DNA from: a bacterium
GTDB lineage: Bacteria > UBP14 > UBA6098
Assembly (NCBI GenBank): GCA_023145965.1
Contig: JAGLDC010000007.1
Coordinates: 5,574-69,573 of the forward strand
Direction: 5' to 3'
DNA: 64,000 nt
The position numbers and the translations under genes are program-made. A model generated the notes under the pieces. The model did not search any database and had not been told where the DNA came from. It saw only the letters and a program-made list of their open reading frames with translations. Shown piece after piece: positions 23,435 to 54,092 of the stretch. Every line of letters starts with the position of its first letter. Position 1 is the first letter of the stretch.

Positions 23435-23919
23435 ACACAAACAAGGTCAAAGAGATACTCAAGATGATCGAGGAAAGTCCACTGGACCAATTAGAGATCG
23501 AAGTCAAACAGTTCGGAGGTAAGGGAATTCGCGTTCGAAAAGGTTCTCTTGCCAACTCTGATAGTTGTGATGTTCGCTCGCCGAATACAATAGATATGGT
23601 TGGTTCTTCATTTAAGGACACCACCTCAGCAAAGTCTTCGGAAAGCGAAAGTCTCGAAAGGGAGCTCAATGATAACCAGATCGAAATCGTTTCTCCGATT
23701 GTTGGCACTTTCTACCGAGCACTATCGCCAGATTCACCGCCTTATGTAGAAGAGGGCGAGTCGATTAGCGCTAATCAGGTTGTTTGCATTGTAGAGGCCA
23801 TGAAGTTGATGAATGAGATTCAATCCGAGGTTTCTGGTGTAGTGGAGAAGATATTGGTTGAAAACAATCACCCTGTCGAATTTGGTCAAGTAATGTTTAT
23901 AATTAACACCCAGAAGTAA
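23431..23919 (+). CDS. accB: Biotin carboxyl carrier protein
   Basis: Biotinyl-lysine motif CIVEAMKLMNEI. GTG start overlapping the leuD stop. Confidence 0.85.
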   Translation: MNTNKVKEILKMIEESPLDQLEIEVKQFGGKGIRVRKGSLANSDSCDVRSPNTIDMVGSSFKDTTSAKSSESESLERELNDNQIEIVSPIVGTFYRALSPDSPPYVEEGESISANQVVCIVEAMKLMNEIQSEVSGVVEKILVENNHPVEFGQVMFIINTQK

Positions 23920-23920
23920 T

Positions 23921-26453: not shown

Positions 26454-26517
26454 TAAGCTTTTTTAATAAAAATTGATTATGTTACACCGAATCGATTCTA
26501 ATCTAAAGGAGATCATC

Positions 26518-27636: not shown

Positions 27637-27660
27637 TATAACACCGTTAAAGTATAGAAT

Positions 27661-27699
27661 AGAGCAAAAAAGGTGAAATAATTTTGCCTTTTTTGCTCT
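27661..27699 (+). terminator. Perfect 13-bp stem hairpin (probable terminator) ending the HIT..dehydrogenase array
   Basis: AGAGCAAAAAAGG (27661-27673) pairs with CCTTTTTTGCTCT (27687-27699) around a 13-nt loop. The T-rich 3' arm lies inside the stem. Confidence 0.5.
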
Positions 27700-27734
27700 A
27701 TAAAATGATGCGTTGATTCTTTCCTTAAAAAAGA

Positions 27735-27761
27735 AAAATATTTATTGACAGAATTAAAGCC
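27735..27761 (+). promoter_or_regulatory. Candidate sigma70 promoter TTGACA-N15-TATAGA upstream of the MEMO-AMMECR1 gene
   Basis: TTGACA at 27735-27740 and TATAGA at 27756-27761, in a 230-nt AT-rich intergenic region. Confidence 0.35.
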
Positions 27762-27864
27762 AATATATAGATTAAAAAGATTATACAGAAGTTGTGAGAT
27801 TGGAAGTTAATACTTTTATTTACTTTGGAGGCATGTAGAGAATAATTGCGACTAATTAGTTAGT

Positions 27865-30698: not shown

Positions 30699-30846
30699 TT
30701 AAACTTGACTTTTTGCAAATAATGTTTTAATTAATAAGCTTGTTTGAAGTCGTTATTAGTATGGGAAATGGAAAATATTGTTAAGTATAAGTTTGAATAG
30801 AAAGAATTTTATTTTTAATCCGATACTCCCGAGGAAGGGGGCATTA

Positions 30847-34464: not shown

Positions 34465-34490
34465 TATCAACCAACTGGATATGAGTAGTT

Positions 34491-37400
34491 ATGATAAAAA
34501 TAAACATAAAGGATAAGGAGCGAGCCTTGAGAGTAAAGACTATGCCTATTATACTCGGTATTCTGGCTCTCGGGCTTTTTGGAAGCCTGTTAGCGCAATC
34601 AGCGCCTGTAGTTGAGCCGGAGCCGGCATATACTGCGGGACATGTCAACCCTTTGCTGTGGTCCGAACCTACAAGCTATAGTGTTACAATTTCAGCTTGG
34701 GAGATTTGGGTTGATACAGCATCTACCGGATTTCCTGATTGGCCGGATTCGGCCTATGAGGAGCTTTTGGGACCAGATAGAATCTCTATCGGCCCGATAC
34801 CGGTGACAGATGCTGCTGATTTCGGTTCTACCTACGGAAGCGAATATGCTTATCCGATCGGTAGCGGTGTTTATGGCGATTCCGACGATCCTCTTACTTC
34901 AGGATTGCGGTATTGTTATAAAGTGCGTTATCGTTGGTACACACCGCCTTCAACTTACGGGTTCTCCGATTGGTCTGAGACACATTGTAGTGTTCAGGAT
35001 GCCGCACCACCTACTGTCGAAATTGATTCTTTACCGGATTGGTGGAATACCGATGAGGTATCGATTCATTATATAGCCAATGATGCCCTCGTTGGTGAAG
35101 TCGATAGTGTGGTATTATATTACAGAATGCCGCCTTCGACCGATTGGATTAGGGTGTTTGCAGAAGCACCGCCACCACCTGGTTACGACGACTATATGGA
35201 ATTTGATATTACAGGAACCGGCGATGGTGAATACGAGTTTTTCATCGGCGCATGGGATGCCTTGGGCAATGGAACCATTCCACTGGGAACGCTTCATGCC
35301 CCAATGGCTGACACAAGGGTTGATGATACTGATCCGACAAGTGCCATTATAGAAACGGAAGATTTACCGCTTTATTATACAGGTTGGCCCGAAGGAATTA
35401 ATCTATTTTTCTCAGCCTCTGATTCATATAGCGGTTTAACAGCAGTCTATCTTGATACCGATTACGGCGATACTCCGCCGTTACCTTTCGATAGTCTATT
35501 TTTCCCGGCTGTGGAAAGTGTCACGCGCGATACCTTCGTATTTTCACGCACCGAGAATGGCGAGTGGAACATTCGTGCTAGAGCTGTCGATTTGGCCGGT
35601 AATCATGAATCAGAAACGACCTGGGATTGGACTTTTTATGTCGATACTCAGGAGCCTGAGTTTACTTCGACAACGGTTATAGACTCGACAACGGTTTCCC
35701 ATCGCTATGATGTTCCTGCAATGCATGGCTGGACAAACTCTCGGGCCGTCAAAGTAACGCCCGAAAGCGCTATCGACCCATTGGTTGATGGTTATGCCAG
35801 CGGCTTGGATACCGTTTCGGTTGCCTCGAATTCGGCATTCACCGAGGATTATATGGCTTTTGTGGCAGGAACACCGCCCTATATTTGGATTACTTCGGAT
35901 GACGACGGCGCAAAGGAAGCATATGTCCATCTCAAGGACAGAGCTACTAATATCAGCGAGTCGAGGTTTGGGGTAATCGAACTCGATACCGAGGTTCCGG
36001 TTCTTTCGGCATGCACACTTTGGAACCATGTAACGCCGGATACCTACACCGACACAACGGTTTCGCTCACTGTCGATGTTACCGCTAATCTCGATCCTTA
36101 TTACGGCTCGGCCAGCGGAATATACTTCGCGCAGAATGCTTCCAATCTTAATTCCATTGATACTGACGATTGGCAGGCGGTAGATGGCGATTATACATTT
36201 ACCTTCGATGGCTTCTCATCGGGCGAGTGGATGACGCTTTATGTTGTAGTTCGCGATAGTGCTGGTAACGTTAGCGAAGCTGCGATAGATAGCATAAGGT
36301 ATATTCATGGAAATAAGTGGGTCGAAATATTCAATATTCGCGATATCGACGGCCCCGATGTTACAGGAAGATACACCGATACAACCGAAATATCTATTGA
36401 GATAGCATACGGTAATGGAATAGATACATTATTGGTTTGGGATGGAAGCTCCATGTTGGGATTACCCGATACTGTTTTCCCTGTGGACGATCCTACCGGT
36501 GATTCGGATACGATAACCATAATTGGCAAACTTGAAAGGACAGACGGTTGGCATACATTGTCCGTTCGCGGAAAGACCGATTATGATATTATCCTCACAG
36601 ATCCGGATACTGCTTCGATAGAGCTTGATATTCAGCATCCGACGGTTCCAGATTTTCTCGTGTTAGACCTTACGATACACACAGAACCTTCAGGTCCTGC
36701 AGATGTTGCCGATACAGGTTGGACGAACGATGCAGATGTTAAAGGCATGTTCACTGGCAGCTACGACACAGGTGGCGAATCCAGTGGAACCGGCCTTTAT
36801 AGGTATAAGGTATCCATCGATACTCTAGTTCTCGGCACTGATGCATTCCCGGGGACTTATCAAGTTGACTTTGCGCTTCCAGTCGCTGATGGCCCTAGTG
36901 ATGTTATCGGTGATGTTCAGGATTCCAGCGGGAATTGGGCCTCTGAAGATGCCGACCCGATTTTCAACATTAAACTCGATACACATATTCCGACTATAGA
37001 CTCGATCCAGCTTTTAGATGCTACAAGTCTTTCACCGGATTATACCGACGATCCAAGTATCGTTGTTAAGATTTTCGGCGATGATGATCCATACACGCCG
37101 GCTTATGCATCGATTTTCGAGGATGGAACGGATTATCCAAATATCGTCCGCTCGATACGCCGTTCATTCAGTTCGGGGACATTAAGTTATATGCTTACAG
37201 ATACGCTCACAGGCGGTATTAAGACGGTTTATGTTGCTCTTATGGATAGAGCTGGGAATATCTCGGCGATTTCTTCGGCCACAATCGTATATAATAAGGA
37301 AATCGTTCTCGACATGTCGCTTTACGACTGCGATAGCGAACCAGAGAATAATGAATGCACGAATGACCCAACTGTTGGTGTGCATTTGTTTGCTTATGGA

Positions 37401-39278
37401 ACTCCGGCTGCAGCTTATATTCTTTCCGAGACACCGGGCGGTTTGCCCGAACCTGACGACCCGCGTTGGATAGACTATCCCGAGAGCGGTGATACTTTAT
37501 TTACCATGGTATTGGATGCCACCGAAGGCGAAAAAGTTATTTATGGATGGCTTCTTTCCGAGAGCTATATAGTCAGTGAGATGGACGAAGACACTATCTA
37601 TCTTGACATGACAGCACCGGAACAGAATGAGGGGTTCTTCGTATGGGATACCACTTCGGGAGATAACTTCCCCACCATATTTAAAGCGGCTATGGGCTGG
37701 TCGAACGAGAGTTATATATTTGCGCAGGTGCCTTTCTCCTATGATGAGGGCTGTGGAACCGATAGTATAAAGTTCTCTGGTGGTATCGACCTTGAGCTCT
37801 GGAGAGACATCGACCATGTTATTGATATCGAGGAACATAGTATTTCATTGGACTTCAGAACGGATAGTCTTCCATTGGTTATCGACACAGACTCCGAGGG
37901 TAGAAAGCAGATAGTTTCGCGTCTTCGCGACTCCGCAGGTAATTGGGGCAATGTTTTCGATCCATTGAGTCAGATAACCATACACGGCGGTTACGATGTT
38001 ACCGCACCTGATTTCGATTTTCTCGATGTTTTCAGTGAAGAGGTTACGGATAGCGTTACTTCGGTGCTTCCGAACTCTCTTCCAATAAAATTCATGGACG
38101 ACCCCGCACCGGGCTTTCTCTGGAAAGTTTGCTGGCAGATCGACTCCGATCCAACCAGGATAAGTTGCACGACTTACGATTCAACCTGGGATACGCCTGC
38201 CGATAGTATTTTCTATGCGGCTTTCCCGGGCGATTTAACAAGTGGTCTTGTTCCCGATCAGCATTACGATCTCAGTATAGTAGTGATCGATTCGGCGGGT
38301 AATCCAAGCGATCTTAAAACAGCGGATCTATTAATAATACCGGATTCAATCGAGTTCGCTTTCGAGGTTGTCGATACTAATGATCTCGAAGATAGCGATT
38401 ACTGTGGCGAAGTAACTGTCGCCACGCATGTTATGATGGATAATCCTCCGGATTATATGAGATTCGGCGAAAGCGCAAGCGGTTTAGGTAGCTGGATGGA
38501 TTATTCCGAATATGGGGAGTTCACGTTTAGCTCCAGCTTGAACCAGATGAAATATGTCTATGCTCAGATTCGTTATGGAACACAGGAATCAAAGATTGCG
38601 GTAGATTCAATCATTCTCGATACTCAGAATCCAAGCGTTTCTAATATCGAAGCCTTCGATATATCGACTGGCGATAGATATTATTCGGACGATGTGGAAA
38701 TTGGATTTAAGGCCTATGGTGCCAGCGATCCTAATCCGGGTATTGTGGGTGCTATGCTCATTGCTGAGGATGCAGATTTTACACTGAATGTTCAGAAGTG
38801 TGAACTCGATCTTACTGATACAACTTGCACTTATACTGCTTCAGAACTTGCAGATATAGATGATGATGCCTCAGCTTCCGGTGAAATTCGACAGGATGCT
38901 AGAGTATTTTGGGTGAAGTTGCTCGACCGCGCCGAGAACCCGGCTTCGATTAAAATGCCCGCTATTGTTATAGATTTAGATGAAGAGCTTGTGACCAACT
39001 TCCCAAATCCTTTCGATCCGACGGAAGAACCCACTATTGTTAGGGTCAAGGGGATTTCGATAGGTGGATCGGTAGAGGTTAGTATCTATGATAATTATGG
39101 TAACTTGGTATGGAATACGACAGTCTCCGCTCTCGGTGGAAGTAAAACAGTTGATGTTTTGTGGAACGGCAAGAACGGAAAGGGTGATGTTGTTGCCGGA
39201 GGAGTTTATGTGGCAATTGTAGAGGTCGAAGGAGAAATCATAAAACGCAAAATAGCTGTATGGAAGGGGGGTGAGTAG
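34491..39278 (+). CDS. Giant secreted surface protein (1595 aa) with a T9SS C-terminal sorting (FlgD-Ig-like) domain
   Basis: N-terminal signal (MIKINIKDKERALRVKTMPIILGILALGLFGSLLAQS). Many Ig/cadherin-like Asp/Thr-rich segments. C-terminus TNFPNPFDPTEEPTIVRVKGISIGGSVEVSIYDNYGNLVWNTTV..VLWNGKNGKGDVVAGGVYVAIVEVEG fits the CTD pattern. Confidence 0.75.
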   Translation: MIKINIKDKERALRVKTMPIILGILALGLFGSLLAQSAPVVEPEPAYTAGHVNPLLWSEPTSYSVTISAWEIWVDTASTGFPDWPDSAYEELLGPDRISIGPIPVTDAADFGSTYGSEYAYPIGSGVYGDSDDPLTSGLRYCYKVRYRWYTPPSTYGFSDWSETHCSVQDAAPPTVEIDSLPDWWNTDEVSIHYIANDALVGEVDSVVLYYRMPPSTDWIRVFAEAPPPPGYDDYMEFDITGTGDGEYEFFIGAWDALGNGTIPLGTLHAPMADTRVDDTDPTSAIIETEDLPLYYTGWPEGINLFFSASDSYSGLTAVYLDTDYGDTPPLPFDSLFFPAVESVTRDTFVFSRTENGEWNIRARAVDLAGNHESETTWDWTFYVDTQEPEFTSTTVIDSTTVSHRYDVPAMHGWTNSRAVKVTPESAIDPLVDGYASGLDTVSVASNSAFTEDYMAFVAGTPPYIWITSDDDGAKEAYVHLKDRATNISESRFGVIELDTEVPVLSACTLWNHVTPDTYTDTTVSLTVDVTANLDPYYGSASGIYFAQNASNLNSIDTDDWQAVDGDYTFTFDGFSSGEWMTLYVVVRDSAGNVSEAAIDSIRYIHGNKWVEIFNIRDIDGPDVTGRYTDTTEISIEIAYGNGIDTLLVWDGSSMLGLPDTVFPVDDPTGDSDTITIIGKLERTDGWHTLSVRGKTDYDIILTDPDTASIELDIQHPTVPDFLVLDLTIHTEPSGPADVADTGWTNDADVKGMFTGSYDTGGESSGTGLYRYKVSIDTLVLGTDAFPGTYQVDFALPVADGPSDVIGDVQDSSGNWASEDADPIFNIKLDTHIPTIDSIQLLDATSLSPDYTDDPSIVVKIFGDDDPYTPAYASIFEDGTDYPNIVRSIRRSFSSGTLSYMLTDTLTGGIKTVYVALMDRAGNISAISSATIVYNKEIVLDMSLYDCDSEPENNECTNDPTVGVHLFAYGTPAAAYILSETPGGLPEPDDPRWIDYPESGDTLFTMVLDATEGEKVIYGWLLSESYIVSEMDEDTIYLDMTAPEQNEGFFVWDTTSGDNFPTIFKAAMGWSNESYIFAQVPFSYDEGCGTDSIKFSGGIDLELWRDIDHVIDIEEHSISLDFRTDSLPLVIDTDSEGRKQIVSRLRDSAGNWGNVFDPLSQITIHGGYDVTAPDFDFLDVFSEEVTDSVTSVLPNSLPIKFMDDPAPGFLWKVCWQIDSDPTRISCTTYDSTWDTPADSIFYAAFPGDLTSGLVPDQHYDLSIVVIDSAGNPSDLKTADLLIIPDSIEFAFEVVDTNDLEDSDYCGEVTVATHVMMDNPPDYMRFGESASGLGSWMDYSEYGEFTFSSSLNQMKYVYAQIRYGTQESKIAVDSIILDTQNPSVSNIEAFDISTGDRYYSDDVEIGFKAYGASDPNPGIVGAMLIAEDADFTLNVQKCELDLTDTTCTYTASELADIDDDASASGEIRQDARVFWVKLLDRAENPASIKMPAIVIDLDEELVTNFPNPFDPTEEPTIVRVKGISIGGSVEVSIYDNYGNLVWNTTVSALGGSKTVDVLWNGKNGKGDVVAGGVYVAIVEVEGEIIKRKIAVWKGGE

Positions 39279-39280
39279 TC

Positions 39281-41095
39281 ATGAGTAGAAAATTTAAACT
39301 CGACTATCTCTGGATTATCCCGCTTTTCGCATTGGTTTCTTTCTCAGCTTTCGCTCAGGATGGCAGTGCCGGTCAAGCCGGGGAGCTTCTCCGTAGTGGA
39401 CTCGATGCAAGGAGTTTCTCTATGGGCAGAGCATATACTGTAATGCCCACAGGGGGCGATGCCCTCGTTTGGAATCCCGCCGGATTAGGAAAACTCGGAC
39501 GCTGGGAATTTCGTTTCATGCATGCTCAAGGCTATGTCGATAGCAGAACCGAATACGGAAGTTTCGCTATTCCTATCGGGGATCTCGGTGGTTTTGGTAT
39601 AGGCTTTGCCAATGAAGGAGTGACCTCTATAGAGGGCCGCGATGCTTTCAACCGTTCTACCGAAGAAATTTCTTGGGGAGAATCAGCCGCTCTGTTTGGT
39701 TGGGGTCGGGCGTTCATGCAGAACAAATTGTATGGTGGTCTTACCGCTAAATATGTGATGCAGAATATGGGAGACGAATCCGCAAATGGTTTTGGCGGCG
39801 TCGATGTCGGCTTTCTGTCTAAAGAATTCATGTTTAAATATCGCGTTGGTTTGACGCTTCAGAACCTCGGTGCAGCCGAGGTAGCTGGTGATGCCTATCC
39901 GATGACCGTTCGAGCTGGCGTCGGTTGGAGGGTTCTTAATGACCTTTATGTTACAGCCGATGGTGAGATGGTTTCTGGAAGGGATATTTCACCGCGAGTC
40001 GGCGCTGAATATCATCTTGGATGGGTAGCAATCCGCGCAGGATACGATATAATGAAGCCAGAGCTTACATTCGGACTTGGGTTGATGATCGACAATATAG
40101 CCGGTAGAGTTGCAGGGACTTATCCGAGATTAGATTATGCCGGAGGAGCATTAGCGCCGATAGGCAATAATTTTGCGAGAGTTTCTTTGACTCTTATGGG
40201 CGAGGAAATGAGCAAACTTGAGGATATTGAAGGTGATCCGTGTTCACAGTTATCGACCATTGAACCGCATATGAGTAAGCGCGGTTTTGTTGGAGCGAAA
40301 GCAAACTTGATCTACGGAGAATGCCGTTTCAAGGCTGAAGCTCTTGAAGCACCATTTGACATTGAACCTCGTTTTGGCGAAATTCATCCCTTCTTCAATT
40401 CTGCCTATTATGGTAAGTATGGTTCTAACTGGATGACCGAGATAGTTACGGATACTCTAGCTCAGACTGTATTTAGCCAGAAAACACATTATATGTATGC
40501 TGAAACGCGTATGGCTAAAGGCATAGATGAAGAAGCCAAAATCCTTCTTGATCAATTGATTTCGGCAGGTGGCGACAGCGCTCAATATGACCTTCGCCTT
40601 CAATATGATCTAGCTTTGATCAATGAAGAATTAGGCGAAACTGACGCGGCACTTAAGGACTACGAGTCTATCGCAGGGAAGAATGTAGATGACCCTGTTA
40701 AGGTTCTCGCTCTTTATCGTGCAGCAAATATACTCAGAGATAGAGATAAGACGAAGGCAATTAATTACCTAGAGACTTTAGTAAGTAAATATGGATCAGG
40801 CTTTTATGATGAAAGCGGTGAAAGAATCGGCTATCCCATGTTCCCCAAGTATATGGATAACTCGATTGCCGATGACGCTACGATCCTGTTAGCCGATATT
40901 ATTTTCTCCACTGCAAGCGGAGACCCAACCGTGCTTCGTAAAGCATTGGGACTTTATCTAGATGTTTTAATTTACTATCCGGATATGCAAGCTTCGATTC
41001 GTCGTGAAGCTGCGGAAAAAGCCGCTATATGTTTCGAAGAACTTGGAGATTCCGCGAGCGCAGCTTCGATGCGCTCGAAAGCGGGTGAGATTTAA
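39281..41095 (+). CDS. Putative outer-membrane beta-barrel (PorV/PorQ/PorP-type, FadL-like) fused to a C-terminal TPR-like domain
   Basis: Signal peptide ..LFALVSFSAFAQ. N-terminal motif DARSFSMGRAYTVMPTGGDALVWNPAGLG resembles the conserved start of T9SS-associated FadL-like barrels. Gly/aromatic-rich alternating strands follow to ~aa 330. The C-terminal 250 aa is helical repeats (TPR-like). Confidence 0.4.
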   Translation: MSRKFKLDYLWIIPLFALVSFSAFAQDGSAGQAGELLRSGLDARSFSMGRAYTVMPTGGDALVWNPAGLGKLGRWEFRFMHAQGYVDSRTEYGSFAIPIGDLGGFGIGFANEGVTSIEGRDAFNRSTEEISWGESAALFGWGRAFMQNKLYGGLTAKYVMQNMGDESANGFGGVDVGFLSKEFMFKYRVGLTLQNLGAAEVAGDAYPMTVRAGVGWRVLNDLYVTADGEMVSGRDISPRVGAEYHLGWVAIRAGYDIMKPELTFGLGLMIDNIAGRVAGTYPRLDYAGGALAPIGNNFARVSLTLMGEEMSKLEDIEGDPCSQLSTIEPHMSKRGFVGAKANLIYGECRFKAEALEAPFDIEPRFGEIHPFFNSAYYGKYGSNWMTEIVTDTLAQTVFSQKTHYMYAETRMAKGIDEEAKILLDQLISAGGDSAQYDLRLQYDLALINEELGETDAALKDYESIAGKNVDDPVKVLALYRAANILRDRDKTKAINYLETLVSKYGSGFYDESGERIGYPMFPKYMDNSIADDATILLADIIFSTASGDPTVLRKALGLYLDVLIYYPDMQASIRREAAEKAAICFEELGDSASAASMRSKAGEI

Positions 41096-41148: not shown

Positions 41149-42516
41149 ATGAAGTTTAACCGCATCGCAAACGGCGTGATGCTGGCAGTGCTTTTCGGAA
41201 TTATTGCAATTTGTGGAACCCTAGCGGCGCAAGCGCCAGCTGAACTGGATTCTATTTGGTTGCATACTTCCGATGCCAAGTGGGAGAAAACCGACGAAGG
41301 TTTTAATCTCACGATGTCATGGGAGCTTTACATCAAGAAAGCTCAAGATAAAAAAGGCTCTAAATTTTCAGGTGAATGGACTAAACTTTCTCCTGAGAAT
41401 GTAGAGTATACTTATCGCGTAGAAGTAGCTACTGATTCGGTTTTCAGCCAAATCGATAAGACTCAGGAAACTAATGAGGCTTCGCTAGTAATCCGCGATC
41501 TAAACTTTGACAAGTTTTATACTTCCAGAGTGCGTATTGTAGATCCTCCGGTCAATTATCGAGACGATTTCGCTGCCGGAACGATTTATAAACATGAAAA
41601 GGAAACCGGCGGAAAAAGCGAAGAACGAAAAGGCGTTATTGGTTTCTTACTTTTCGCCTTCGATAAGGGCGGATGGCAAACCTACGTTATTATTGCTCTC
41701 GCTTTATTGGGAATCCTGGGAGTTATGCCGATAACATGGTATAGACTTCGTTTGGCGAATATCTTCCCGCCGAATAAACCCGGGTTCTTATATTCGGCTT
41801 TGCCTTTCGATAGAACCGGGAAATGCGATCATCTATCGCCTAAGGGCAATGTCTTTGTTCGCGAAGTGGCAAAATATTGGTCGCGGGCTATGGCGGCTAT
41901 GGCATCCGATCCCTCGAATTGGGAGAGCACCGATGCTTTTATTAAAGCTACGGCTCAAGAACAAGAGGAAGTTAAGAAGCGCCGTTGGATCGAAGAGGGT
42001 CTTCCTGCGATAGAGCAGGCTATCGATGTCTGTAAAAATGGCGTTCCCGGTATCAAACTGAAGAAAAAACCGCTCGACTACCCGTTCCCGCGCGTTCTTC
42101 TCGCGGCGCTGGAAAATCAGAGGATTAACCGCAATAACTGGTGGGCGAGTCAGGAAATGGACAGAGCCGTTGAGAACACCTCGTTTAAAGAAATCGACGA
42201 TCTTAAGGGATGGAGTGTCACGGCATTCTGGGCTTTAGGTTCGGTTGAGCCTATGCTCGGTTTGTTCGGCACTGTTGAAGGAATTCAGAAGGCCTTCATG
42301 AAGATCCAGGAGCAATTAAAGGAAAATCCGGATGCGCCTATGGCCGATACGATTGAAAACCTCGCAGGAGGTATTCATCAAGCGCTTATTACCACGTTCT
42401 TCGGATTGCTCTTCGGTATTCCGTTCATGATGATTTACTATTATTATCGTGGAAAAGCTGATTGGGTTTTCTCCAAATGGGAGGAAATCGTTATCGACCT
42501 ATTAAACAGGGCCTAA
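41149..42516 (+). CDS. exbB: MotA/TolQ/ExbB-family proton channel protein with a ~200-aa N-terminal extracytoplasmic domain
   Basis: C-terminal part has three TM helices and the family motif MLGLFGTVEGIQKAF. Strong SD AAGGAGG lies 5 nt before the ATG at 41149. The N-terminal signal peptide is followed by a beta-rich domain with no recognisable family. Confidence 0.75.
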   Translation: MKFNRIANGVMLAVLFGIIAICGTLAAQAPAELDSIWLHTSDAKWEKTDEGFNLTMSWELYIKKAQDKKGSKFSGEWTKLSPENVEYTYRVEVATDSVFSQIDKTQETNEASLVIRDLNFDKFYTSRVRIVDPPVNYRDDFAAGTIYKHEKETGGKSEERKGVIGFLLFAFDKGGWQTYVIIALALLGILGVMPITWYRLRLANIFPPNKPGFLYSALPFDRTGKCDHLSPKGNVFVREVAKYWSRAMAAMASDPSNWESTDAFIKATAQEQEEVKKRRWIEEGLPAIEQAIDVCKNGVPGIKLKKKPLDYPFPRVLLAALENQRINRNNWWASQEMDRAVENTSFKEIDDLKGWSVTAFWALGSVEPMLGLFGTVEGIQKAFMKIQEQLKENPDAPMADTIENLAGGIHQALITTFFGLLFGIPFMMIYYYYRGKADWVFSKWEEIVIDLLNRA

Positions 42517-42532
42517 CCCAAGGAGGGGCAGA

Positions 42533-43102
42533 ATGCCCAGAAAACAAACAGAGGCTGTACCTTCTGCTGACTGGACCTCCTTAATCGATATCATCTTCCA
42601 GTTGCTCATCTTCTTCATGGTGACGCTGGCTATGGGGACAGTCGAGCAACAGGCTAGTGCCCAGATGGAAGGTGAAATGGATGAGAGCCTACCCGAGTTG
42701 CCCGGAATGAGTAATCTCGGTGAAGCCTTAGAAATCGGCCCCGGCGTGATACTTATTCATGCCGCTTACGATGAAGATAATGAAGTTGCAGGCGATATAG
42801 TAACATATCTCTTTACGAACGAGATCTCGAATATTGAAGAGGCGAAGAAAGATTCAACTCATAGCGCGGGTCCGTTCTCTTGGGATAAAGCCTATAAGAA
42901 GCTGCAAAAGCAGCTTACTTTTGCTCGTGATTACAACGAAAACCTTCCGAGGGTCGAGATGAGGGCTTTTAAGGGAACTCCTTACGGTAATGTTCTCGAT
43001 ATTATGAACCTATGCTATCACGACGAACCCGAAATGAGAATCGATCAGGTATATTTTAGGTTTGCTAGATTAGCTAGAGAGCAATTGGGAGGTGGAAGTT
43101 AG
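42533..43102 (+). CDS. exbD: ExbD/TolR-family biopolymer transport protein (paralogue 1)
   Basis: N-terminal DWTSLIDIIFQLLIFFMVT is the ExbD/TolR TM signature. SD AAGGAGGGG. Confidence 0.75.
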   Translation: MPRKQTEAVPSADWTSLIDIIFQLLIFFMVTLAMGTVEQQASAQMEGEMDESLPELPGMSNLGEALEIGPGVILIHAAYDEDNEVAGDIVTYLFTNEISNIEEAKKDSTHSAGPFSWDKAYKKLQKQLTFARDYNENLPRVEMRAFKGTPYGNVLDIMNLCYHDEPEMRIDQVYFRFARLAREQLGGGS

Positions 43103-43663
43103 ATGCAGAGAAGATATCTTAATCTTGAAAGCGCCGACTGGACGCCTTTAATCGATATTATCTTCCAGTTGATGATCTTCTTCCTGGTAACGATGAGCGT
43201 TCTTCCGGCGGTGAAATCTGCACCGCAGGTCGAGGGGAATATGTCGCTTCCGACACCGAATCAAGGAAGTTCTGAAGTCTCACACCTTATTCAGATATTG
43301 AAGGTCCCTTTCAAATCCGACATGTATGGTTATCTTGTTCTTGACGGCACTCCGCAATCTGCCGAATTCTATAAGGATGTTGACAGAAACCGTCAGTTTT
43401 TAGGTGACCAATATGCATTGGAAAGTGAAATTGTTCTTGGAACAAATATGGGGCTTTGGTTTAACGAGACAAGTCTTAAAGCGAAGTTTCAAGAAGCCTT
43501 CAGTCAACAGGATGTTAAGGTGATTATTAGAGCTGCCAGGAATGTCCCATATGGAGAGGTAGTAAAGGTTCATTCGATATTGTTTAATATCGGTATATCC
43601 AAGATCGCTTGGTTGGATGGCAAGATTGGAACTCTTAAGGCTGACATCAAGGAGGTGAGGTAG
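43103..43663 (+). CDS. exbD: ExbD/TolR-family biopolymer transport protein (paralogue 2)
   Basis: DWTPLIDIIFQLMIFFLVT. The start directly abuts the previous stop. SD GGAGGTGG. Confidence 0.75.
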   Translation: MQRRYLNLESADWTPLIDIIFQLMIFFLVTMSVLPAVKSAPQVEGNMSLPTPNQGSSEVSHLIQILKVPFKSDMYGYLVLDGTPQSAEFYKDVDRNRQFLGDQYALESEIVLGTNMGLWFNETSLKAKFQEAFSQQDVKVIIRAARNVPYGEVVKVHSILFNIGISKIAWLDGKIGTLKADIKEVR

Positions 43664-44230
43664 ATGAGCAAACTCAAACCTACCTATAAAGTTGTCGTTT
43701 TAAGCTTCGTCGTTATTTTATTGGCGATGTCTTTCGGTTGTAGAAACGCTGTCGAAGGCGAGAGCGGTTTCGAAACTGAAGATGGACCGAAGATAATCTT
43801 CCGTGGCGGTTATGGTAATATTGTTATCAAGTATCAACCACCGCCTGAACCAATATTCCAAGTTGGTAATGCAACTCGATATCTCGATTTCAATGAGTTA
43901 CAAAAGAAATTTGGTATCGTCGAGCAACCTTTAATTCTTTCTTATACTGTGAAAACTTCTGTGATGAGTGCGAGTATAGAAAGCAATACGCTTGATCCAG
44001 CATTCGATAACGAAATTCTTGCGGTTATCAAGAGCTGGACCTATACCAGATGGGGCTTTGGTAGATTAAGGATCAAGATTGAAATGGCGAGAAGCCGAGT
44101 TACCGTAGATATGAGTGGAGCTAATCTTGCGGATAGAGTTCCTAATATGAGCATGCCACGCTTTGGCGAAGCCAAAGATATGGTCGCTGCATACGGTTTC
44201 GGAAAGGTTTCTCAGGCAGGTATAGATTAA
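43664..44230 (+). CDS. Lipoprotein / TonB-like energy-transducer candidate (by synteny after exbB-exbD-exbD)
   Basis: Signal peptide ending SFGC (lipobox-like). Short Pro-rich QPPPEPIFQ. C-terminal beta region. The position matches tonB in Bacteroidetes-type exbB-exbD-exbD-tonB loci. Sequence evidence is weak. Confidence 0.3.
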   Translation: MSKLKPTYKVVVLSFVVILLAMSFGCRNAVEGESGFETEDGPKIIFRGGYGNIVIKYQPPPEPIFQVGNATRYLDFNELQKKFGIVEQPLILSYTVKTSVMSASIESNTLDPAFDNEILAVIKSWTYTRWGFGRLRIKIEMARSRVTVDMSGANLADRVPNMSMPRFGEAKDMVAAYGFGKVSQAGID

Positions 44231-44237
44231 TAACAAA

Positions 44238-44270
44238 ACGCCCGTCTTGTGGCGGGCGTATTTTGACATT
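44238..44270 (+). terminator. Rho-independent terminator closing the cargo/Exb unit
   Basis: ACGCCCG (44238-44244) pairs with CGGGCGT (44253-44259), 8-nt loop, then ATTTTGACATTTTTT. Confidence 0.6.
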
Positions 44271-44311
44271 TTTTCGTTATTTAAAGTTAAAACATAAACA
44301 AAGAGGATGAA

Positions 44312-47300
44312 ATGAAGAAAATAATCGCAGGAATCCTTTTTATCGCGTTGATTTCTGTTGTTGGTCTTGTGGCTCAGGATGCAGAAGAGACTACGACAGT
44401 AGTTGATGAAAATATTTTAGCCGAAGAAGCGGATGCTACTGCTACAGAAGCAATCGAAGAAAATTCTCCGGTTAATCCGGCGATGAATCAAACCGGCATT
44501 GGAGGGATTAATGAGGCTTATGAAGCGGGTGCGGAGGCTCTCCAGGAAGGTAATTCAGATTCAGCGATCTCCTATTTCCAAAGCGCTGTTACTATCGCCG
44601 ATGTATTCCTTGGCGGTATTGTCGATCCTAGCGAAGAAGCTCAGGCTAAATATTTTAAAGGTCTTGCGCTTTATTATTGGGGGAAATTGGCAAAAGATGA
44701 CGGTAAGCTCGACGAGGCTTCTGCGGAATTCGGAGAGGCAATTAGCGCTTTTACAGCGATAGAGAAACTCGGGCGTTTTTATCTCGATAGTAAATATCGA
44801 AGAGCACTGTGTTCTTATCGTCAGTACCAAAATGCTAAGGTAGAAAATTCGCAGATTCGTAAGCTTGGTCAGTCATACGGCGATCTTCGAGATTTTCTCG
44901 AAGACCCTGCTCTTCAAGAGGCCAAGGATGAAATGGTCTCTGAGATCGAGAGCGGGAATTATTTTTCAGCATTATGCCTATTAAGACGCGGGCAAATCAA
45001 GACTTTCGATCCCTCTGAGTATAAAGCAGCTAAAAACGATCTTATTACAGCAGCAGGTTATTTCGCGGAGTTGGTAGATGCCAAAAACCAGCAAATAGCT
45101 ATTGTATCGAAATTAATGGAAGGGCTTACACATTATTACATAGCCAGATTATATATGCAGGTTACCCCGGAAAACTGGGAAGAGGTGGCTCTTTCTAATA
45201 AAGAGAGAGATGCGGTCATTATGGAGGAACTAGAAACAGCTGATACGAGGTTGAAGGCCGCAAAGTCCTCAGTGGGAGCATTTGCTACCGCAGTGCCTTA
45301 TATCGATTTCGCTATACTCTATAATAAAATTGCTCGAGGTGCCGCTGGTGATGCTTCAAAGCTTCGCGAGGCTTTAGAAACCCTTTCAAGCCAATCAGCT
45401 TCTGGGATATGGTCAAAGGAAAAAGACATACTTGCAGCAGATGCACAATTGCTGCGCTATTTTTCAGGGGAAGCGAATGCCGGTGCGGCCGTTAACGGAT
45501 GGAGTGGTTTAACGGGGAAAGATAAGATTGCAAATTACTGGATAGGTTGGGTTAAATTCATTGAGGCAATTGAAGAACCAAATAACTATCCCCAGTCCTC
45601 AGCTCAATTTAATAATTTCTTATCTGGTGGTAGTGGGTCAACGCGTGAAGCTATCATGCGTGCCGATGCAAAATTTAGAGATGCTGAATGTATATTCTGG
45701 GATGCTACTCTTAAAGAGCTTGCCCCTCTTCTTCAAGAAGCCAAAGGTACATACGAATCCCTTATTTCAAGCAGTGGAGCTTATTTCCGCTATCTTCCAG
45801 AAGAAATCCTCAAGCAAGCAGAAGTTAGGATTCAGATCATTGAAGTTCAACAGAGAATGGCAAGTGGAACCAGTGATATTAACCGCGTGATTACGAACCT
45901 TAAAATGCAAGGTCTTAATCTACCAGATGATGCGGCAGCTTATCTCAATTTTGGCCAATACTTCCTAGAAAAGGCAAACCGAGAAGCTGGCGACAAGCGT
46001 ATCCGCGATGTGGGTTTAGCTATAGGTCTTTTTAATCATGTAGCACAGAATTCATCGGTTAAAGCCGGTTTATTGCAGGAAGCTAAGTTCCTCAAAGGTG
46101 TGGGTTATGTTAAGAAGGCTACAGCTGTTCAGTCCCAAGAAGAAGCTTCTTCCGCAATGAAAGAAGCACAGCAGATTCTTAATGGCGTCACCGGTAAATT
46201 GGCAACAGAAGCGAAATATGCTATCGGTGTTGGTTTCTTCAATATAGAGGATAAGGCCAATGCGAGAACAGCGCTTAATAGCTTTAAAGATAACTATCTT
46301 CGTCCTGCTTTTGTATATGGAATGTCGAGCGATGGTTGTGTTACTAAAGGAACATATCTTCGCAAAGTTATTTCAAGCACAGACAGGTCGGACACATGGC
46401 ATATCAAAGCAACTTTGGCTTTTGATGGTCTCGAGTGTAAAAGCAGTATTCCCCCTCAATCAAACGATTTAAAATCTATCGGTTCACCGATTACATATGA
46501 GTCTCTTGCCGATGCAAAAGCACAAATGGATGAACTTAGATCTAAAGCTATTCTTATGTGGGAGAAAGTCAGCCCAGGAATGAATGCGTATCCGGCAGAT
46601 GATCTAATTCCAGATATGCCACCAAAAACGACTATTCTTGTTCAATTTCAAATTGTCGATCCTAATGATAAAACCATAAGCGGTGATCATTCTCTTATTA
46701 TAGACAACGATACTGAGATTGCTGAAAAAACGGATGGAAGCACCTATCGCGCAACTCTTAGCAGAGCGACACATAAGATAGAAGTTAACTTTAGAGGCTA
46801 TTATAAGTTTTCCGAGGAGCTTTCAATTACAGAAGAACAAACGGTTCCTTTAGTTCTAAAAAAGGCTGTTCGTTATGTCAGAAGAGGTTCTGATGTTGAT
46901 AATACAAATCAACCGATGGCCATCACTGCCGACGATGAGCAGTTATTCGTTGCAAGCAACGATAAGAAAACCATATTTAGACGCAATGCAGGGGAAAACC
47001 TCATTGGTTCGATTAATTATGAAGATATCGGTGTTTCAGCAGTTACCGGTTTAGCCCTCGATGGTGATTATTTGTTAGTGGTCGATGGTCGTTCGGGGCA
47101 AGTTAAGCTCACCACGGTCGATGGCTCAGATGTTCAGCCTATTGCGGTTAAGGGCGAATCTTATGGTGGTTCACCGTTAGTGAAGCCATTAAGCGCGATT
47201 TCTGTGGATGGCAGATATTATGTTGTCGATGCTGGCAATAGCCGTATTGTTGTTTTCGAGGGGATTAATTTCAGGAGTAAATTCGGAGTTGATCAGCTAG

Positions 47301-47674
47301 AGCATCCAATGGGAATTGCCTATAGAGCAAGTGATAGCAGGCTTTTAGTCACTGATATTGTCCAAGGGAAGGTGTTTGTTTTTTCAAAGACAGGAGACAT
47401 GATTGAGAGTTTCGCACTACCTAATCTAAAAAGCCCAAGTAGTATCTTCGTTGACCCTGATGGTTTTATCCTTATCTCGGACTATGTTAGCAATGCAATT
47501 TACAAATATACGAACAGATTCGAACCTCTCGGTGAAGTTACAGGTGAGATTGAGGCTCCGATTGCTATTGCGCAAATAGGGAGTGGTCCTGATGCAACAC
47601 TTTTTGTTGCATGTCAAGATGTTGTCGCAGTATTAAAGGGCGCATGGGACAATGCCTATACGCCGTCTAAGTAA
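44312..47674 (+). CDS. Large secreted TPR-like and NHL-repeat beta-propeller protein (1120 aa)
   Basis: Signal peptide MKKIIAGILFIALISVVGLVAQ. Long helical-repeat region. C-terminal NHL repeats (YVVDAGNSRIVVFEG; LLVTDIVQGKVFVFSKTGD; ILISDYVSNAIYKY). Confidence 0.6.
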   Translation: MKKIIAGILFIALISVVGLVAQDAEETTTVVDENILAEEADATATEAIEENSPVNPAMNQTGIGGINEAYEAGAEALQEGNSDSAISYFQSAVTIADVFLGGIVDPSEEAQAKYFKGLALYYWGKLAKDDGKLDEASAEFGEAISAFTAIEKLGRFYLDSKYRRALCSYRQYQNAKVENSQIRKLGQSYGDLRDFLEDPALQEAKDEMVSEIESGNYFSALCLLRRGQIKTFDPSEYKAAKNDLITAAGYFAELVDAKNQQIAIVSKLMEGLTHYYIARLYMQVTPENWEEVALSNKERDAVIMEELETADTRLKAAKSSVGAFATAVPYIDFAILYNKIARGAAGDASKLREALETLSSQSASGIWSKEKDILAADAQLLRYFSGEANAGAAVNGWSGLTGKDKIANYWIGWVKFIEAIEEPNNYPQSSAQFNNFLSGGSGSTREAIMRADAKFRDAECIFWDATLKELAPLLQEAKGTYESLISSSGAYFRYLPEEILKQAEVRIQIIEVQQRMASGTSDINRVITNLKMQGLNLPDDAAAYLNFGQYFLEKANREAGDKRIRDVGLAIGLFNHVAQNSSVKAGLLQEAKFLKGVGYVKKATAVQSQEEASSAMKEAQQILNGVTGKLATEAKYAIGVGFFNIEDKANARTALNSFKDNYLRPAFVYGMSSDGCVTKGTYLRKVISSTDRSDTWHIKATLAFDGLECKSSIPPQSNDLKSIGSPITYESLADAKAQMDELRSKAILMWEKVSPGMNAYPADDLIPDMPPKTTILVQFQIVDPNDKTISGDHSLIIDNDTEIAEKTDGSTYRATLSRATHKIEVNFRGYYKFSEELSITEEQTVPLVLKKAVRYVRRGSDVDNTNQPMAITADDEQLFVASNDKKTIFRRNAGENLIGSINYEDIGVSAVTGLALDGDYLLVVDGRSGQVKLTTVDGSDVQPIAVKGESYGGSPLVKPLSAISVDGRYYVVDAGNSRIVVFEGINFRSKFGVDQLEHPMGIAYRASDSRLLVTDIVQGKVFVFSKTGDMIESFALPNLKSPSSIFVDPDGFILISDYVSNAIYKYTNRFEPLGEVTGEIEAPIAIAQIGSGPDATLFVACQDVVAVLKGAWDNAYTPSK

Positions 47675-49241
47675 GACATTTATTAAAGTTGCTATCCTCT
47701 TTGGGGGGTTCTTATTTTGTAAGACCCCCCTTTTAGGTCAATATACTATCGACCTTACCGATGGGATATGCTCACAAAGGTTCCTTAATTCCGCCGAAAA
47801 TGTAGCTAAGTCATACGCAAATGATCTTGGTGCCCCCGAATTTCTATCGCAAATGATAGATTCCTCTTTTATTTCAGAAGATTATATATCGACAATTACA
47901 TACCTATATATAGCCCATTTTGCGGCTGGTGTGGATGAAACATATCTAGGAGATATTGCCTTCGTTATGGAGAGGGCTGGGTGTAACAGCCTTCCTGATT
48001 CATTATATAAGCTTCATATGGAAATAAACCCGCGCGACTATAAAGCTATCGGGAATTATGCTATTCTGTTAGCCAAAAACTGGAAATTTAAGGATGCGAG
48101 ACACATTATTGAAAGCAATTTGGGTAAATTTCGTGGTGAGAAAAAAAATAATTTATTAAGAGATCTAGGTCTTGTTAGAGCCCTGGAATATAATCGAAAC
48201 AAAAGTGAAAAAGCTTTATCAGCAGCTTTTGAGGCTTTTAGAAAAACTAGATATGGAACTCGAAAATCGCCTACAACTTTACAAAGAGGTGCTGTAGATT
48301 TTAAAGTTGCCCCTGTAGAAAGCTTCGAAAGCGGTAAATATAGATTCAACGCCTCACTCGAACATGCTGTAGGTTCAGATGGAATTATCCTTAATATTTG
48401 CGGAAGAATTGTTTTTGGAAGGGAAATGACTACGGACATTAAAGAGATCGATCAACTGGATGTTGCTGAGCTTTTAGGAGATATATATATTGCCCCGGGA
48501 GATTATTTACAAAGCGAAAGAGGTGCTTTAGAAGTTATAGGTGATCTTGGAGAATTCGCACCATTTTACGATGGTAGGATAGAACTCGAGATTGAAGTGG
48601 TGTTTCCTGATGGTTCCCGAAAGTATTTTAAAAATAACCCAGAACCCTTAACGCTCGATTCACCACATCTATCCCATATCACGAGCGAGTTATTCTATGG
48701 TAAAGGTGAATGGTCTTGCTCGTTAATGACAGAAATAGCCGATAGTGGAGCCGATTTGCCGGTATTATGGCGCGAATCAGCATATCTATCTACTGCATTA
48801 GAAGATTCAAGCAAATGGGTCGAGGCGATAAACTTCGTCGATTCACTTATGAATATAAAGTTGTATCCGAATCTCTGGGTTTATCGTGGCGCATTGGATT
48901 ACCTTTTAGGCAATTATGTTGCCGCAAGACATCCGTTGTTACAGGCTTTAGAGAATGATCCTAATAATTATTGGGCTATGCATAATCTTGGACTTGTAGA
49001 ATATGAGCTTGGCAATGAATCTCTAGCTGTCGAGCTTCTTATAAAAACCGCAGATATCAATCCTGAAATGAGTGCGAATTATATTGTAGCTGGAGCTATC
49101 TTAGAAGAAGATGGCAAATTAAGGGAAGCTTTAAAATACTACAAGAAGGGGCATTCCAAATCAGCTTTTCGCTCAGATGAAGTTCAAAGTTGGATCAAAA
49201 ATCTGGAGCAACAGCCGGGGATAATGGAGCCGATTGAATAG
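47652..49241 (+). CDS. TPR repeat protein with an N-terminal membrane anchor
   Basis: Hydrophobic N-terminus VAILFGGFLFC. C-terminal TPR units (YRGALDYLLGNYVAARHPLLQALENDPNNYWAMHNLGLVEYELGN..). 23-nt overlap with the upstream gene. Confidence 0.55.
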   Translation: MPIRRLSKTFIKVAILFGGFLFCKTPLLGQYTIDLTDGICSQRFLNSAENVAKSYANDLGAPEFLSQMIDSSFISEDYISTITYLYIAHFAAGVDETYLGDIAFVMERAGCNSLPDSLYKLHMEINPRDYKAIGNYAILLAKNWKFKDARHIIESNLGKFRGEKKNNLLRDLGLVRALEYNRNKSEKALSAAFEAFRKTRYGTRKSPTTLQRGAVDFKVAPVESFESGKYRFNASLEHAVGSDGIILNICGRIVFGREMTTDIKEIDQLDVAELLGDIYIAPGDYLQSERGALEVIGDLGEFAPFYDGRIELEIEVVFPDGSRKYFKNNPEPLTLDSPHLSHITSELFYGKGEWSCSLMTEIADSGADLPVLWRESAYLSTALEDSSKWVEAINFVDSLMNIKLYPNLWVYRGALDYLLGNYVAARHPLLQALENDPNNYWAMHNLGLVEYELGNESLAVELLIKTADINPEMSANYIVAGAILEEDGKLREALKYYKKGHSKSAFRSDEVQSWIKNLEQQPGIMEPIE

Positions 49242-49245: not shown

Positions 49246-50151
49246 TTAGTCTTCAACCACTGCGGGAGATATATATTTTTTAGGATCTGTCGCTTTTCCT
49301 GATATCCTGACTTCGTAATGAAGATGCACACCTGTAGTGTTACCTGAATTCCCGCAAGTCCCGATGATATCACCCCGTTTAACGGACTGTCCCGGTCTGA
49401 CTTTAATTTCACTTAAGTGTGCATATCGGGTTTCGTAATATGTATGATTTACCCTAACCATCTTGCCATAGCCGTGATACCAGCCTGTAAAACGAACTTT
49501 TCCATCTGCGGTAGCGCGCACCGGTGTCCCTTTTCTTGCACAAATATCAATGCCTTCATGTTGTTTCCAAATGCCAGTAAAGGGATCGAGCCTTTTCCCA
49601 AAGCCAGAACTGACGTAACCCTTCATAGGCCAAATAGAAGGAGTGCGGTCGAATAGCGACTTTCTTTTAGTGAAGTGTTCTTGTGTCTCAAGAATAGCCT
49701 TATTTTCGGTCTGAGCGGCCACTATAAGGGAATCGAGTTTTCTGTCTATTTCTTTAGCGCGAGCTAAGATAATCGGTTGATCGGGATCAAGGTAAGCGAG
49801 TTCTGGGCCACCTATGCCATAAGAAAAATTGGATTCATCGATGGGGGGGAGGTCGGCTACCTCGCGGACTTTCGAGTTAATTTCCCTCAGATTGCCGAAG
49901 AGAATTTCCAGAGAATCTGCTCTATGTTCCATTATCTTTATATTTTGCGCGAGTAACTTATTATTATTGGATTGCGCGCGAGATTGAACAAGCTCATTAA
50001 AATTAAACAGATTGAAGCCGAAAAATAGCACATTTACAAGTATGAGGGCTCCGACTGCGAAAAGAATCCATCGAAGTCGTGAGCCCTCAATTCTGATTTG
50101 CCTGATCTTCCCCGAATGTGGGGGGATTATTTGAAAACTATATTTTCCCAT
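49246..50151 (-). CDS. M23 family peptidase (LytM/EnvC-like, N-terminal TM plus coiled coil)
   Basis: HEGIDICARKGTPVRATADGKV..GNTTGVHLHYEV zinc motifs. Convergent with the TPR gene, 4-nt gap. Confidence 0.85.
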   Translation of the reverse strand: MGKYSFQIIPPHSGKIRQIRIEGSRLRWILFAVGALILVNVLFFGFNLFNFNELVQSRAQSNNNKLLAQNIKIMEHRADSLEILFGNLREINSKVREVADLPPIDESNFSYGIGGPELAYLDPDQPIILARAKEIDRKLDSLIVAAQTENKAILETQEHFTKRKSLFDRTPSIWPMKGYVSSGFGKRLDPFTGIWKQHEGIDICARKGTPVRATADGKVRFTGWYHGYGKMVRVNHTYYETRYAHLSEIKVRPGQSVKRGDIIGTCGNSGNTTGVHLHYEVRISGKATDPKKYISPAVVED

Positions 50152-51320: not shown

Positions 51321-54071
51321 CTATTTATTTCTTAAAGCTGCTTGAGCCGCCGCAAGGCGTGCGACCGGAACCCTATAAGGACTACAACTAACATAATTCA
51401 GGCCAACTCGGTGGCAGAAATCGATAGAATTCGGTTCTCCACCGTGTTCGCCACAAATACCTGCTTTTAGATTTGGATTGGTTTTGCGGCCTAATTCAAC
51501 AGCGATAGATACTAGTTTGCCGACTCCCTTTTGATCGAGGGATTGGAAGGGATCAATATCGTAGATGCCGAGTTTAACATAGTAGGGAAGGAATTTACCT
51601 GCATCGTCGCGCGAGAAACCACAACCCATTTGTGTAAGGTCGTTTGTTCCGAAGCTAAAAAACTCAGCAATAGTGGCTATTTCATCCGCCGTCACGGCAG
51701 CACGGGGAATCTCTATCATAGTGCCTACTTGATAAGGGATATCCTTTTTGGAGAGCCCTGCATCGGTAAGAACTTGGTCTGCCATCTCGACAACAAAATT
51801 CTTTTGAAGCTCTAGTTCTTTGACATTGCCGATCAGAGGAATCATAATTTCAGGATGGACTTCAATTCCCTCTTTGAATACCGTGACTGCAGCTTCCATG
51901 ATCGCTCGGGCTTGCATTTGTGTAATCTCGGGATATGTAATGCCTAGGCGGCAACCGCGATGTCCTAACATGGGGTTTGACTCATGCAAACTCTCTACTT
52001 TCGCTTTAACATCTTCTACAGAGATGCCTATCTGTGTCGCAACTTGTTGCTGCCCTTCGGGATCATGGGGAAGGAATTCATGTAAGGGTGGGTCGAGGGT
52101 TCTAATTGTTGCTGGTCTGCCATTGAGCGCGCGGAAAATACCCTCGAAATCGTCGCGTTGCATAGGAAGAATTTTGTCTAGGGCTTTTTTGCGGCCTTCA
52201 ATATTGTTTGCCATTATCATCTCTCTGAATGCCACAATACGGTCGCCTTCAAAGAACATGTGTTCCGTTCTACATAGTCCAATTCCTTGGGCGCCGAATT
52301 TTACCGCAATAACAGTGTCGCGCGGGGTGTCAGCATTTGTCCGCACACCAAGTTTGCGAATTTCGTCGGCCCAACTCATGAATTCCTCGTATTGTGCGTA
52401 TAGAAGGGAATCTTTCGGTTGAAGGGTGCCATTGAGAACCTGGAGTATTTCCGATGGCTTAACTTCGATCGGTCTTGCATATACATCGCCGGTGAATCCA
52501 TCGATGGAAATCATATCACCTTCATTGAATGACCTATTTTCGATTTTTAGAGTTCGGGATTTGTAATTGATCACAAGCTCTCCAGCGCCAGCTACGCAAG
52601 GAACTCCCATTCCACGGGCAACGACTGCGGCATGAGATGTCATACCCCCTCGTGAGGTTAGGATACCCTTAGAGATGGCCATTCCACCGATGTCCTCTGG
52701 AGTAGTCTCGATTCGAGTAAGTATAACGCGAGTGTGTTCTTCCAGATACGCCTTGCGTTCATGTTTAGGTAATTTTGCAGCTTCCGCTTTAGCTTTCGAG
52801 ATTATCTCTTCAGCTTTCTCGGAATTAAAGACTATAACTCCTGTCGCACCACCCGGGGATGCAGGCAAACCTGATGCCATCACTAAGCCTTCATCGCGCG
52901 CCTTTTTTTGATCTTTTGAGTCTAAGATGGGAGCAAAAAGCTGGTTGAGTTGGTCAGCTGGCACCCGAGAAATAGCCTCGTTTTTAGTGATAAAGCCATC
53001 TTCGACCATTTCAGTGGCAATTCTCAGGGCAGAAAATATAGTCCTTTTGCCACTACGGGTTTGAAGCATCCAGAGTTTATTATTTTCAATAGTAAATTCA
53101 ACATCCTGCATCTCGCGATAACGCTCTTCGAGTTTTTCGCGTATGTGAAGAAGCTCTTCATATGCTTTTGGCATATTTTCCTGAAGTTCTTTGATTGGCT
53201 TAGGCGTTCTGATCCCAGCGACGACATCTTCGCCCTGAGCATTCATTAAATATTCGCCATAGAATACGTTCTCGCCGGTGGCTGGGTTCCGTGTGAAGGC
53301 GACTCCGGTTCCACAATTCTCACCCATGTTACCGAAGACCATGGCCTGAATATTAACTGCTGTTCCGAGAAGGCCTTTGATATTGTTTAATTCGCGATAT
53401 TTGATAGCACGAGAATTGTTCCAGCTTCCGACTACTGCGCCGATCGAGCTTTTCAATTGCTCAAATGGGTCCGTTGGGAAATCACTACCCGTGTGTTCTT
53501 TGTAGATATTAAGATAATCATCGACAAGTTCCTTAAGATCATCCGCGCTCAGATCCATGTCGAGTTACACACCGCGTTCGTCTTTTTTAGCTTGAATTGC
53601 CTCTTCGAATTTTTCGTGGGGAACATTCATTACTACATTGCCGAACATATTAATAAATCTTCGATAGGCATCCCATGCAAAACGTTCGTTAGAGGACTTA
53701 TTAGCAAGGCCTTTAACAGATTTTGGGTTTAAGCCAAGATTGAGGACAGTGTCCATCATCCCGGGCATCGATACAGAGGCGCCCGAGCGAACTGAAACGA
53801 GAAGTGGATTATCTGAATCTCCAAGTTTCTTTTTCATGGCCTTCTCGAGTTTATGCATATACTCTTCTATGTCGGTCCAAAGGCCTTCAGGATAGGTGCA
53901 TTCGTGTTTGTGATAATAATCACAAACACTTGTAGATATTGTGAATCCAGGCGGAACAGGCAAGCCTAGCTTAGACATCTCTGCGAGGTTGGCTCCTTTA
54001 CCTCCGAGAATATCCTTCATTCCTGCGTTTCCTTCAGCTTCGTTCGGGCCGAAAAAGTATAGACATTTCAT
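51321..54071 (-). pseudogene. ppdK: Pyruvate, phosphate dikinase interrupted by one in-frame TAA (stop at 53565-53567 on the minus strand); two ORFs of 168 and 745 aa
   Basis: N-terminal ORF carries the PPDK ATP-grasp start (..[27 protein letters not shown]..). The C-terminal ORF carries phospho-His and PEP-utilising domains (..GGMTSHAAVVARGMG.., ..GICGEHGGEP..). The junction reads KKDERGV-TAA-LDMDLSADDLKEL in one frame, where PPDKs have GVKLDxDL. Confidence 0.8.
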
Positions 54072-54092
54072 ATAACCTCCTAATTTGCTTGA

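Follow-up and report, generated by a model that had tools for sequence, protein, structure and literature searches.

An in-frame TAA codon in the ppdK gene of a cold-seep metagenome-assembled genome: a probable recent strain-level nonsense allele

The pyruvate, phosphate dikinase (PPDK) gene ppdK of an uncultured cold-seep bacterium is interrupted by an in-frame TAA at codon 169 in the 64,000-nucleotide stretch of DNA analysed here (hereafter, the window). On balance, we regard this codon as probably real, i.e., as a very recent strain-level loss-of-function allele that was captured by the re-assembly of a metagenome-assembled genome (MAG). The codon is an ordinary strain-level nonsense variant or a consensus error and not a recoding signal.

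The window, whose GC content is 0.431, is part of a MAG that was recovered from the South China Sea (Site-F cold seep) and reassembled with MetaWRAP/SPAdes (PMC9357000). Zhang et al. 2022 (Sci Data 9:480, PMC9357000) obtained 23 Illumina metagenomes from this site; MEGAHIT assembly was followed by binning and then by metaSPAdes re-assembly of each bin via MetaWRAP. The records SAMN18200488/SRR13892591, which are used below, correspond to sample SW_4 of that study (PMC9357000).

Results

The ppdK reading frame is interrupted at codon 169

The entire ppdK locus occupies positions 51321..54071 of the minus strand (916 codons plus the stop codon). On this strand, the sequence around the break reads GAC GAA CGC GGT GTG TAA CTC GAC ATG GAT CTG, with the premature TAA located at 53567..53565. 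The stop separates an N-terminal ORF of 168 amino acids plus stop (53565..54071, minus strand), which encodes the initial portion of the PPDK_N ATP-grasp domain, from a C-terminal ORF of 745 amino acids that begins at Met172 (51321..53558, minus strand) and encodes the remainder of PPDK_N, the mobile phospho-His domain and the PEP/pyruvate-binding domain. Both ORFs are in the same frame, and their fused translation is a full PPDK from end to end. In a tblastn comparison, an intact homologue, P0001, aligned to the window over residues 1–916 with 99.9% identity, the stop at codon 169 being the sole difference. Thus, the division of PPDK into 168-aa and 745-aa ORFs, which was originally noticed from the letters of the window, was confirmed by the sequence, the ORFs and tblastn; the ATG located 6 nt 3′ of the TAA was likewise found in the minus-strand sequence, and the two halves proved to be otherwise intact, as had been stated. 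Judged against the gene calls of near-identical reference contigs, ppdK is the only split gene in the 48 kb that were compared.

The identity of the gene product is clear. The fused (intact) protein contains the Pfam domains PPDK_N (PF01326), PEP-utilizers (PF00391) and PEP-utilizers_C (PF02896), PPDK_N being the one that is split across the 168-aa and 745-aa ORFs, and the fused translation matched the PPDK structures 1KBL, 1DIK and 9PZL with E = 0 over residues 12–916. When the 745-aa fragment was searched against GTDB genome contigs, PPDKs from other phyla with 52–60% identity were among the matches listed. The catalytic phospho-His motif G-G-x-T-S-H-A-A-V-V-A-R is present, with T478, S479 and H480 invariant in the 120 best homologues, and every other residue that is invariant across these homologues is retained in the fused protein as well. 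The invariant residues are distributed between the two pieces: the 168-aa piece has G23-G24-K25-G26-A27-N28-L29, R95-S96-G97 and M105-M106-D107-T108, and the 745-aa piece has D323, E325, Q337 and the catalytic H480, as well as the PEP-binding domain.

Translation of the window allele is predicted to end after residue 168, part-way through the ATP-grasp nucleotide-binding domain. The break site presumably falls in the helical sub-domain (residues about 112–196) of the 1996 PPDK structure paper. Neither fragment alone would contain a complete ATP site, so that, unless the fragments reassemble, the allele would be expected from its sequence to be without PPDK activity; the truncated products are probably inactive. 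Whether the cell could tolerate such a loss would hinge on pyruvate kinase, PEP synthase or PEP carboxykinase encoded elsewhere in the genome.

Two other assemblies of the same sample carry an intact allele

A protein search was run with the fused translation, in which Lys was placed at the stop. It yielded P0001, a protein of 916 amino acids listed at 100% identity, whose own sequence has Gln at position 169. P0001 is encoded on scaffold_72 of the ENA assembly of SAMN18200488 (118,555 bp) and on a 47-kb Logan contig of SRR13892591. The order of genes, namely those for MetRS, nucleotide-sugar (UDP-sugar) dehydrogenase, purF, ppdK, M42 peptidase and M23 peptidase, is common to the window and both contigs. 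The comparison covered 48,089 of the 64,000 window bases (those outside 16622..32532) and revealed 99.97% identity between the window and the other assemblies, with 8 differences and 0 indels. At the site of interest, direct alignment gave GTG CAA CTC in both other assemblies versus GTG TAA CTC in the window; the altered base, 53567, is T in place of C on the coding strand and A in place of G on the plus strand. A single uninterrupted chain, as is typical of PPDK (ca. 880–1070 amino acids), is encoded by the allele of both other assemblies and is broken in the window by the TAA at codon 169. The window allele combines an in-frame stop, set against an intact orthologue at the same locus, with a truncation that removes essential residues, as a nonsense loss-of-function allele does.

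Since both other assemblies read CAA, the change is a C>T transition (CAA>TAA). A single-base nonsense change does account for the split, as was originally proposed, the other assemblies differing from the window at one base of the codon; the specific change that had been put forward, AAA (Lys) to TAA, is replaced by one from Gln, because this is what the two assemblies from the same population encode. It had also been anticipated that a consensus error would reveal itself by an AAA codon in the reads; a sense codon was indeed found in the other assemblies, but it is CAA rather than AAA.

Column 169 is variable and always sense in the 120 best homologues, where it is occupied by K (40), E (31), V (23), T (10), D (7), A (6), S (2) or Q (1). 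The statement that PPDKs have Lys at this place holds only in part: nine of the 12 closest relatives have K, as against 40 of the 120 homologues overall. All 120 homologues are single chains of 883–1071 amino acids. Met172, the potential restart residue, is part of the intact protein and is common to a few close relatives (six of the 120 homologues), which indicates that it is older than the stop and was not made alongside it.

Differences specific to the window are mostly synonymous

Of the eight differences, six set the window apart from both other assemblies; each of these is a G:C>A:T change. Five of these are synonymous third-position changes: ATC>ATT at 41943, AAG>AAA at 41946, GAG>GAA at 45649, TGC>TGT at 52272 (minus strand; Cys, ppdK codon 600) and AAG>AAA at 53583 (minus strand; Lys, ppdK codon 163, 16 nt upstream of the stop). 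The sixth is the CAA>TAA change at 53567 (minus strand), i.e., Q169*. Randomly placed G:C>A:T changes in these genes are expected to be 27.9% synonymous, 67.5% missense and 4.6% nonsense, and the probability of at least five synonymous changes out of six under random placement is 0.008. The window-specific variants therefore look like strain polymorphism that has been filtered by selection, that is, like a second strain haplotype, and their synonymous nature suggests that the window itself represents a genuine strain haplotype.

Since the synonymous variant at 53583 is only 16 nt away from the stop, the two changes should lie on one de Bruijn path (with k above 17) and so come from the same reads; this linkage makes a real nonsense allele likelier than an error. 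Within ppdK, nothing but the stop and two synonymous changes distinguishes the window from the intact allele, and a gene with no further damage has had no time for decay. The reference assemblies also disagree with each other at a single position, 48401, where the window has the base of the Logan contig; a discrepancy of this kind would follow from strain bubbles being resolved in different ways by different assemblers. The only missense difference from the reference scaffold, AAG>GAG (K103E) at 10843 in the QueH gene (10595..11149, minus strand), is at a site covered by one reference assembly.

The six window-specific differences are also clustered, forming two close pairs, with spacings of 3 nt and 16 nt, and two singles; the probability of two such pairs under random placement is about 3e-5. 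The direction bias and the clustering of pairs could be a processing peculiarity of this assembly, or they may reflect a mosaic resolution of strain bubbles by different assemblers. The uniform G:C>A:T direction suggested damage of the ancient-DNA type, i.e., deamination, as the main cause of the differences; this was rejected in view of the five synonymous changes out of six and of the pairs, whose members affect opposite strands.

ppdK lacks a protein accession in GenBank

NCBI accessions of the window proteins, all of them on a contig of 72,174 nt, were obtained by exact protein look-up. The 1120-aa hypothetical protein (locus tag KAH81_00855), the TPR protein, the M23 peptidase and the M42 peptidase are MCK5832199, MCK5832200, MCK5832201 and MCK5832202, respectively, and purF, the nucleotide-sugar dehydrogenase and MetRS are MCK5832203, MCK5832204 and MCK5832205. 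There is no accession for ppdK, which is flanked by the consecutive accessions MCK5832202 (M42 peptidase) and MCK5832203 (purF), with no number between them. Judging from this gap, GenBank most likely annotates ppdK as a pseudogene with an internal stop, and the gap, along with the lack of matches to the fragments in a protein collection, fits a PGAP pseudogene call. Neither fragment was found by exact look-up in this collection of 15 billion proteins, which is weak evidence, the index being incomplete. Indeed, the 604-aa product of another ORF of the window was also not on record, despite the presence of identical DNA and the same gene call on a reference contig. JGI metagenomes, scanned with a query that had N at the variable base, gave 0 matches to either allele; that index is likewise incomplete.

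The 604-aa ORF just mentioned (39281..41095, plus strand; positions 6749..8563 of reference contig L085) is the last of three adjacent, very large ORFs of 1228, 1595 and 604 amino acids at 30778..41095 (plus strand), on which Pfam is nearly silent (a weak match to FlgD_ig and a faint one to Big_13). They may encode secreted or surface proteins, since other proteins of the same contig have Por_Secre_tail (T9SS) domains. Further downstream (41149..49241, plus strand), genes for ExbB, ExbD and a second ExbD form a cluster, after which come a 188-aa ORF, the 1120-aa protein KAH81_00855, which has no Pfam match, and the TPR protein of 529 amino acids. For the M23 peptidase (49246..50151, minus strand), the annotations disagree on the start site of the same ORF, with 228 amino acids according to NCBI and 301 according to ENA/Logan. 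The left edge of the window (195..1163, plus strand) and the region upstream of it on contig L083 (1..5820) contain a conserved string of genes for LptC, an LptB-like ABC ATPase, sigma-54, a radical-SAM protein, a ribosome hibernation factor and HPr kinase.

Discussion

The observations can be brought together in the following way. Q169*, a single C>T change from CAA to TAA, would have arisen on one strain-level haplotype of the uncultured cold-seep bacterium. The authors' assembly and bin re-assembly would have followed this haplotype, which would have brought the TAA allele into the deposited MAG, while two other assemblies of SW_4 would have followed the intact one. The TAA allele would then be a ppdK loss-of-function allele and a nascent pseudogene rather than a programmed feature. 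A single assembly shows T at 53567, and the two others, both of SW_4, have C at this position; we infer that the T is present in the reads and was not introduced by the assembler.

The opposite view, that the population contains only CAA and that the T stems from a sequencing error, from DNA damage by deamination of cytosine or from mismatches being corrected when MetaWRAP/SPAdes re-assembled a recruited subset of reads, is the main rival and, in our view, the less likely account. In its favour, two independent pipelines recovered CAA from the SW_4 reads, and the stop was seen in a single assembly. Moreover, all window-specific changes are in the direction expected of deamination, and the MAG was made by read recruitment followed by re-assembly, a step that is able to fix minority or erroneous bases. 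Random error does not, however, readily produce a set in which all five remaining window-specific changes are synonymous (P = 0.008, as given above), which argues that most peculiarities of this assembly are real polymorphism; among the synonymous variants, the one at 53583, 16 nt away, is on the same path as the stop. Each close pair consists of a C>T next to a G>A, i.e., of changes on opposite strands, and clusters of deamination on a single strand are not expected to give such pairs. Finally, with 53–81 Gb per sample and >90% of bases at Q30 (PMC9357000), an error in the consensus of a contig of >70 kb is unlikely.

The remaining alternatives take the stop for real and ascribe to it another meaning. 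One can imagine that the gene is a functional split or recoded gene, in which TAA is read through or translation reinitiates at AUG172, so that the 168-aa and 745-aa fragments form an active PPDK or gain a new role. Both halves are undamaged and the ATG is only 6 nt past the stop; termination–reinitiation over such distances is known in bacteria. Yet an intact allele is present in the same population, and the stop is not conserved in relatives, as would be expected of programmed recoding, since all 120 homologues have a sense codon at column 169. Nor do the homologues, single chains of 883–1071 amino acids throughout, point to a naturally split enzyme, and Met172 existed before the stop. Translation signals speak against independent initiation as well: 18 of 28 genes here have a Shine–Dalgarno sequence and the native ppdK start is preceded by AGGAGGT (54075..54081, minus strand, 3 nt upstream of the ATG), whereas none was found before the internal ATG at 53558, where the preceding sequence is ...GGTGTGTAACTCGAC, so that this ATG would be usable only by termination-coupled reinitiation. 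In addition, the break divides the ATP-grasp active site, so that invariant K25 and R95 are on a different fragment from D323, E325 and Q337. Of the 50 long ORFs of the window, 26 are closed by TAA, more than by TAG (13) or TGA (11), and, as the original prediction had maintained, TAA is an ordinary terminator with no sign of a code change. Reassignment of TAA to Gln, which came to mind because the intact allele encodes Gln, was rejected on the same stop usage. An Rfam scan of the window gave nothing beyond tRNA-Glu(CUC), its sole tRNA; a suppressor tRNA was not seen there. A split or recoded gene is, in our opinion, very improbable. Its most elaborate form, a real allele at intermediate frequency in which reinitiation at AUG172 yields a reconstituted PPDK or a 745-aa phospho-His/PEP-domain protein with a new role, has hardly any likelihood, though it would, if true, amount to a naturally arisen split within an ATP-grasp domain. 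Scarcely any weight can be given either to the suggestion that the window contains a decaying paralogue while a second, intact ppdK resides elsewhere in the same genome. Identical synteny on 99.97%-identical DNA identifies the intact copy as an allele of this very locus rather than a paralogue, contrary to what had been considered originally; the window itself contains no second PPDK-like sequence, and the gene is free of other damage. Thus, among the causes first listed for the split, a recent nonsense mutation and an assembly error both stand, and readthrough and reinitiation found no support.

The biological weight of the finding is slight: a single MAG has a single premature stop, and annotation pipelines flag such stops as a matter of routine. 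If the allele is real, it provides a small example of a loss-of-function variant that segregates in an uncultured cold-seep bacterium and affects central carbon metabolism. The case also calls for some caution, as the re-assembly of bins can settle on a base that is strain-specific or wrong and is absent from other assemblies of the same sample; metabolic reconstructions should treat ppdK of this MAG as neither missing nor split before the reads have been checked.

The fused protein of the window resembles the PPDK of Clostridium symbiosum (EC 2.7.9.1; PDB 1KBL, 1DIK, 9PZL) in its three domains and in the T-S-H480 residues; unlike in the latter enzyme, the frame is broken at codon 169, which corresponds approximately to C. 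symbiosum residue 166, a His. With bacteria that use codes 4/25 and with TAG-recoded phages, the locus shares an in-frame stop, here at a position where the other allele encodes Gln. In contrast to such stop-reassigned systems, TAA terminates 26 of 50 ORFs of the window, TAG and TGA are also used, and the stop at codon 169 is not conserved in relatives. A further likeness is to pseudogenes flagged by PGAP for an "internal stop", which similarly have a single in-frame stop in an otherwise conserved gene and no accession between those of the flanking genes. The present case differs from them in that an intact allele is documented in the same population and is distinguished by only two further differences, both synonymous, and so the event has either been caught at the stage of polymorphism or is an error.
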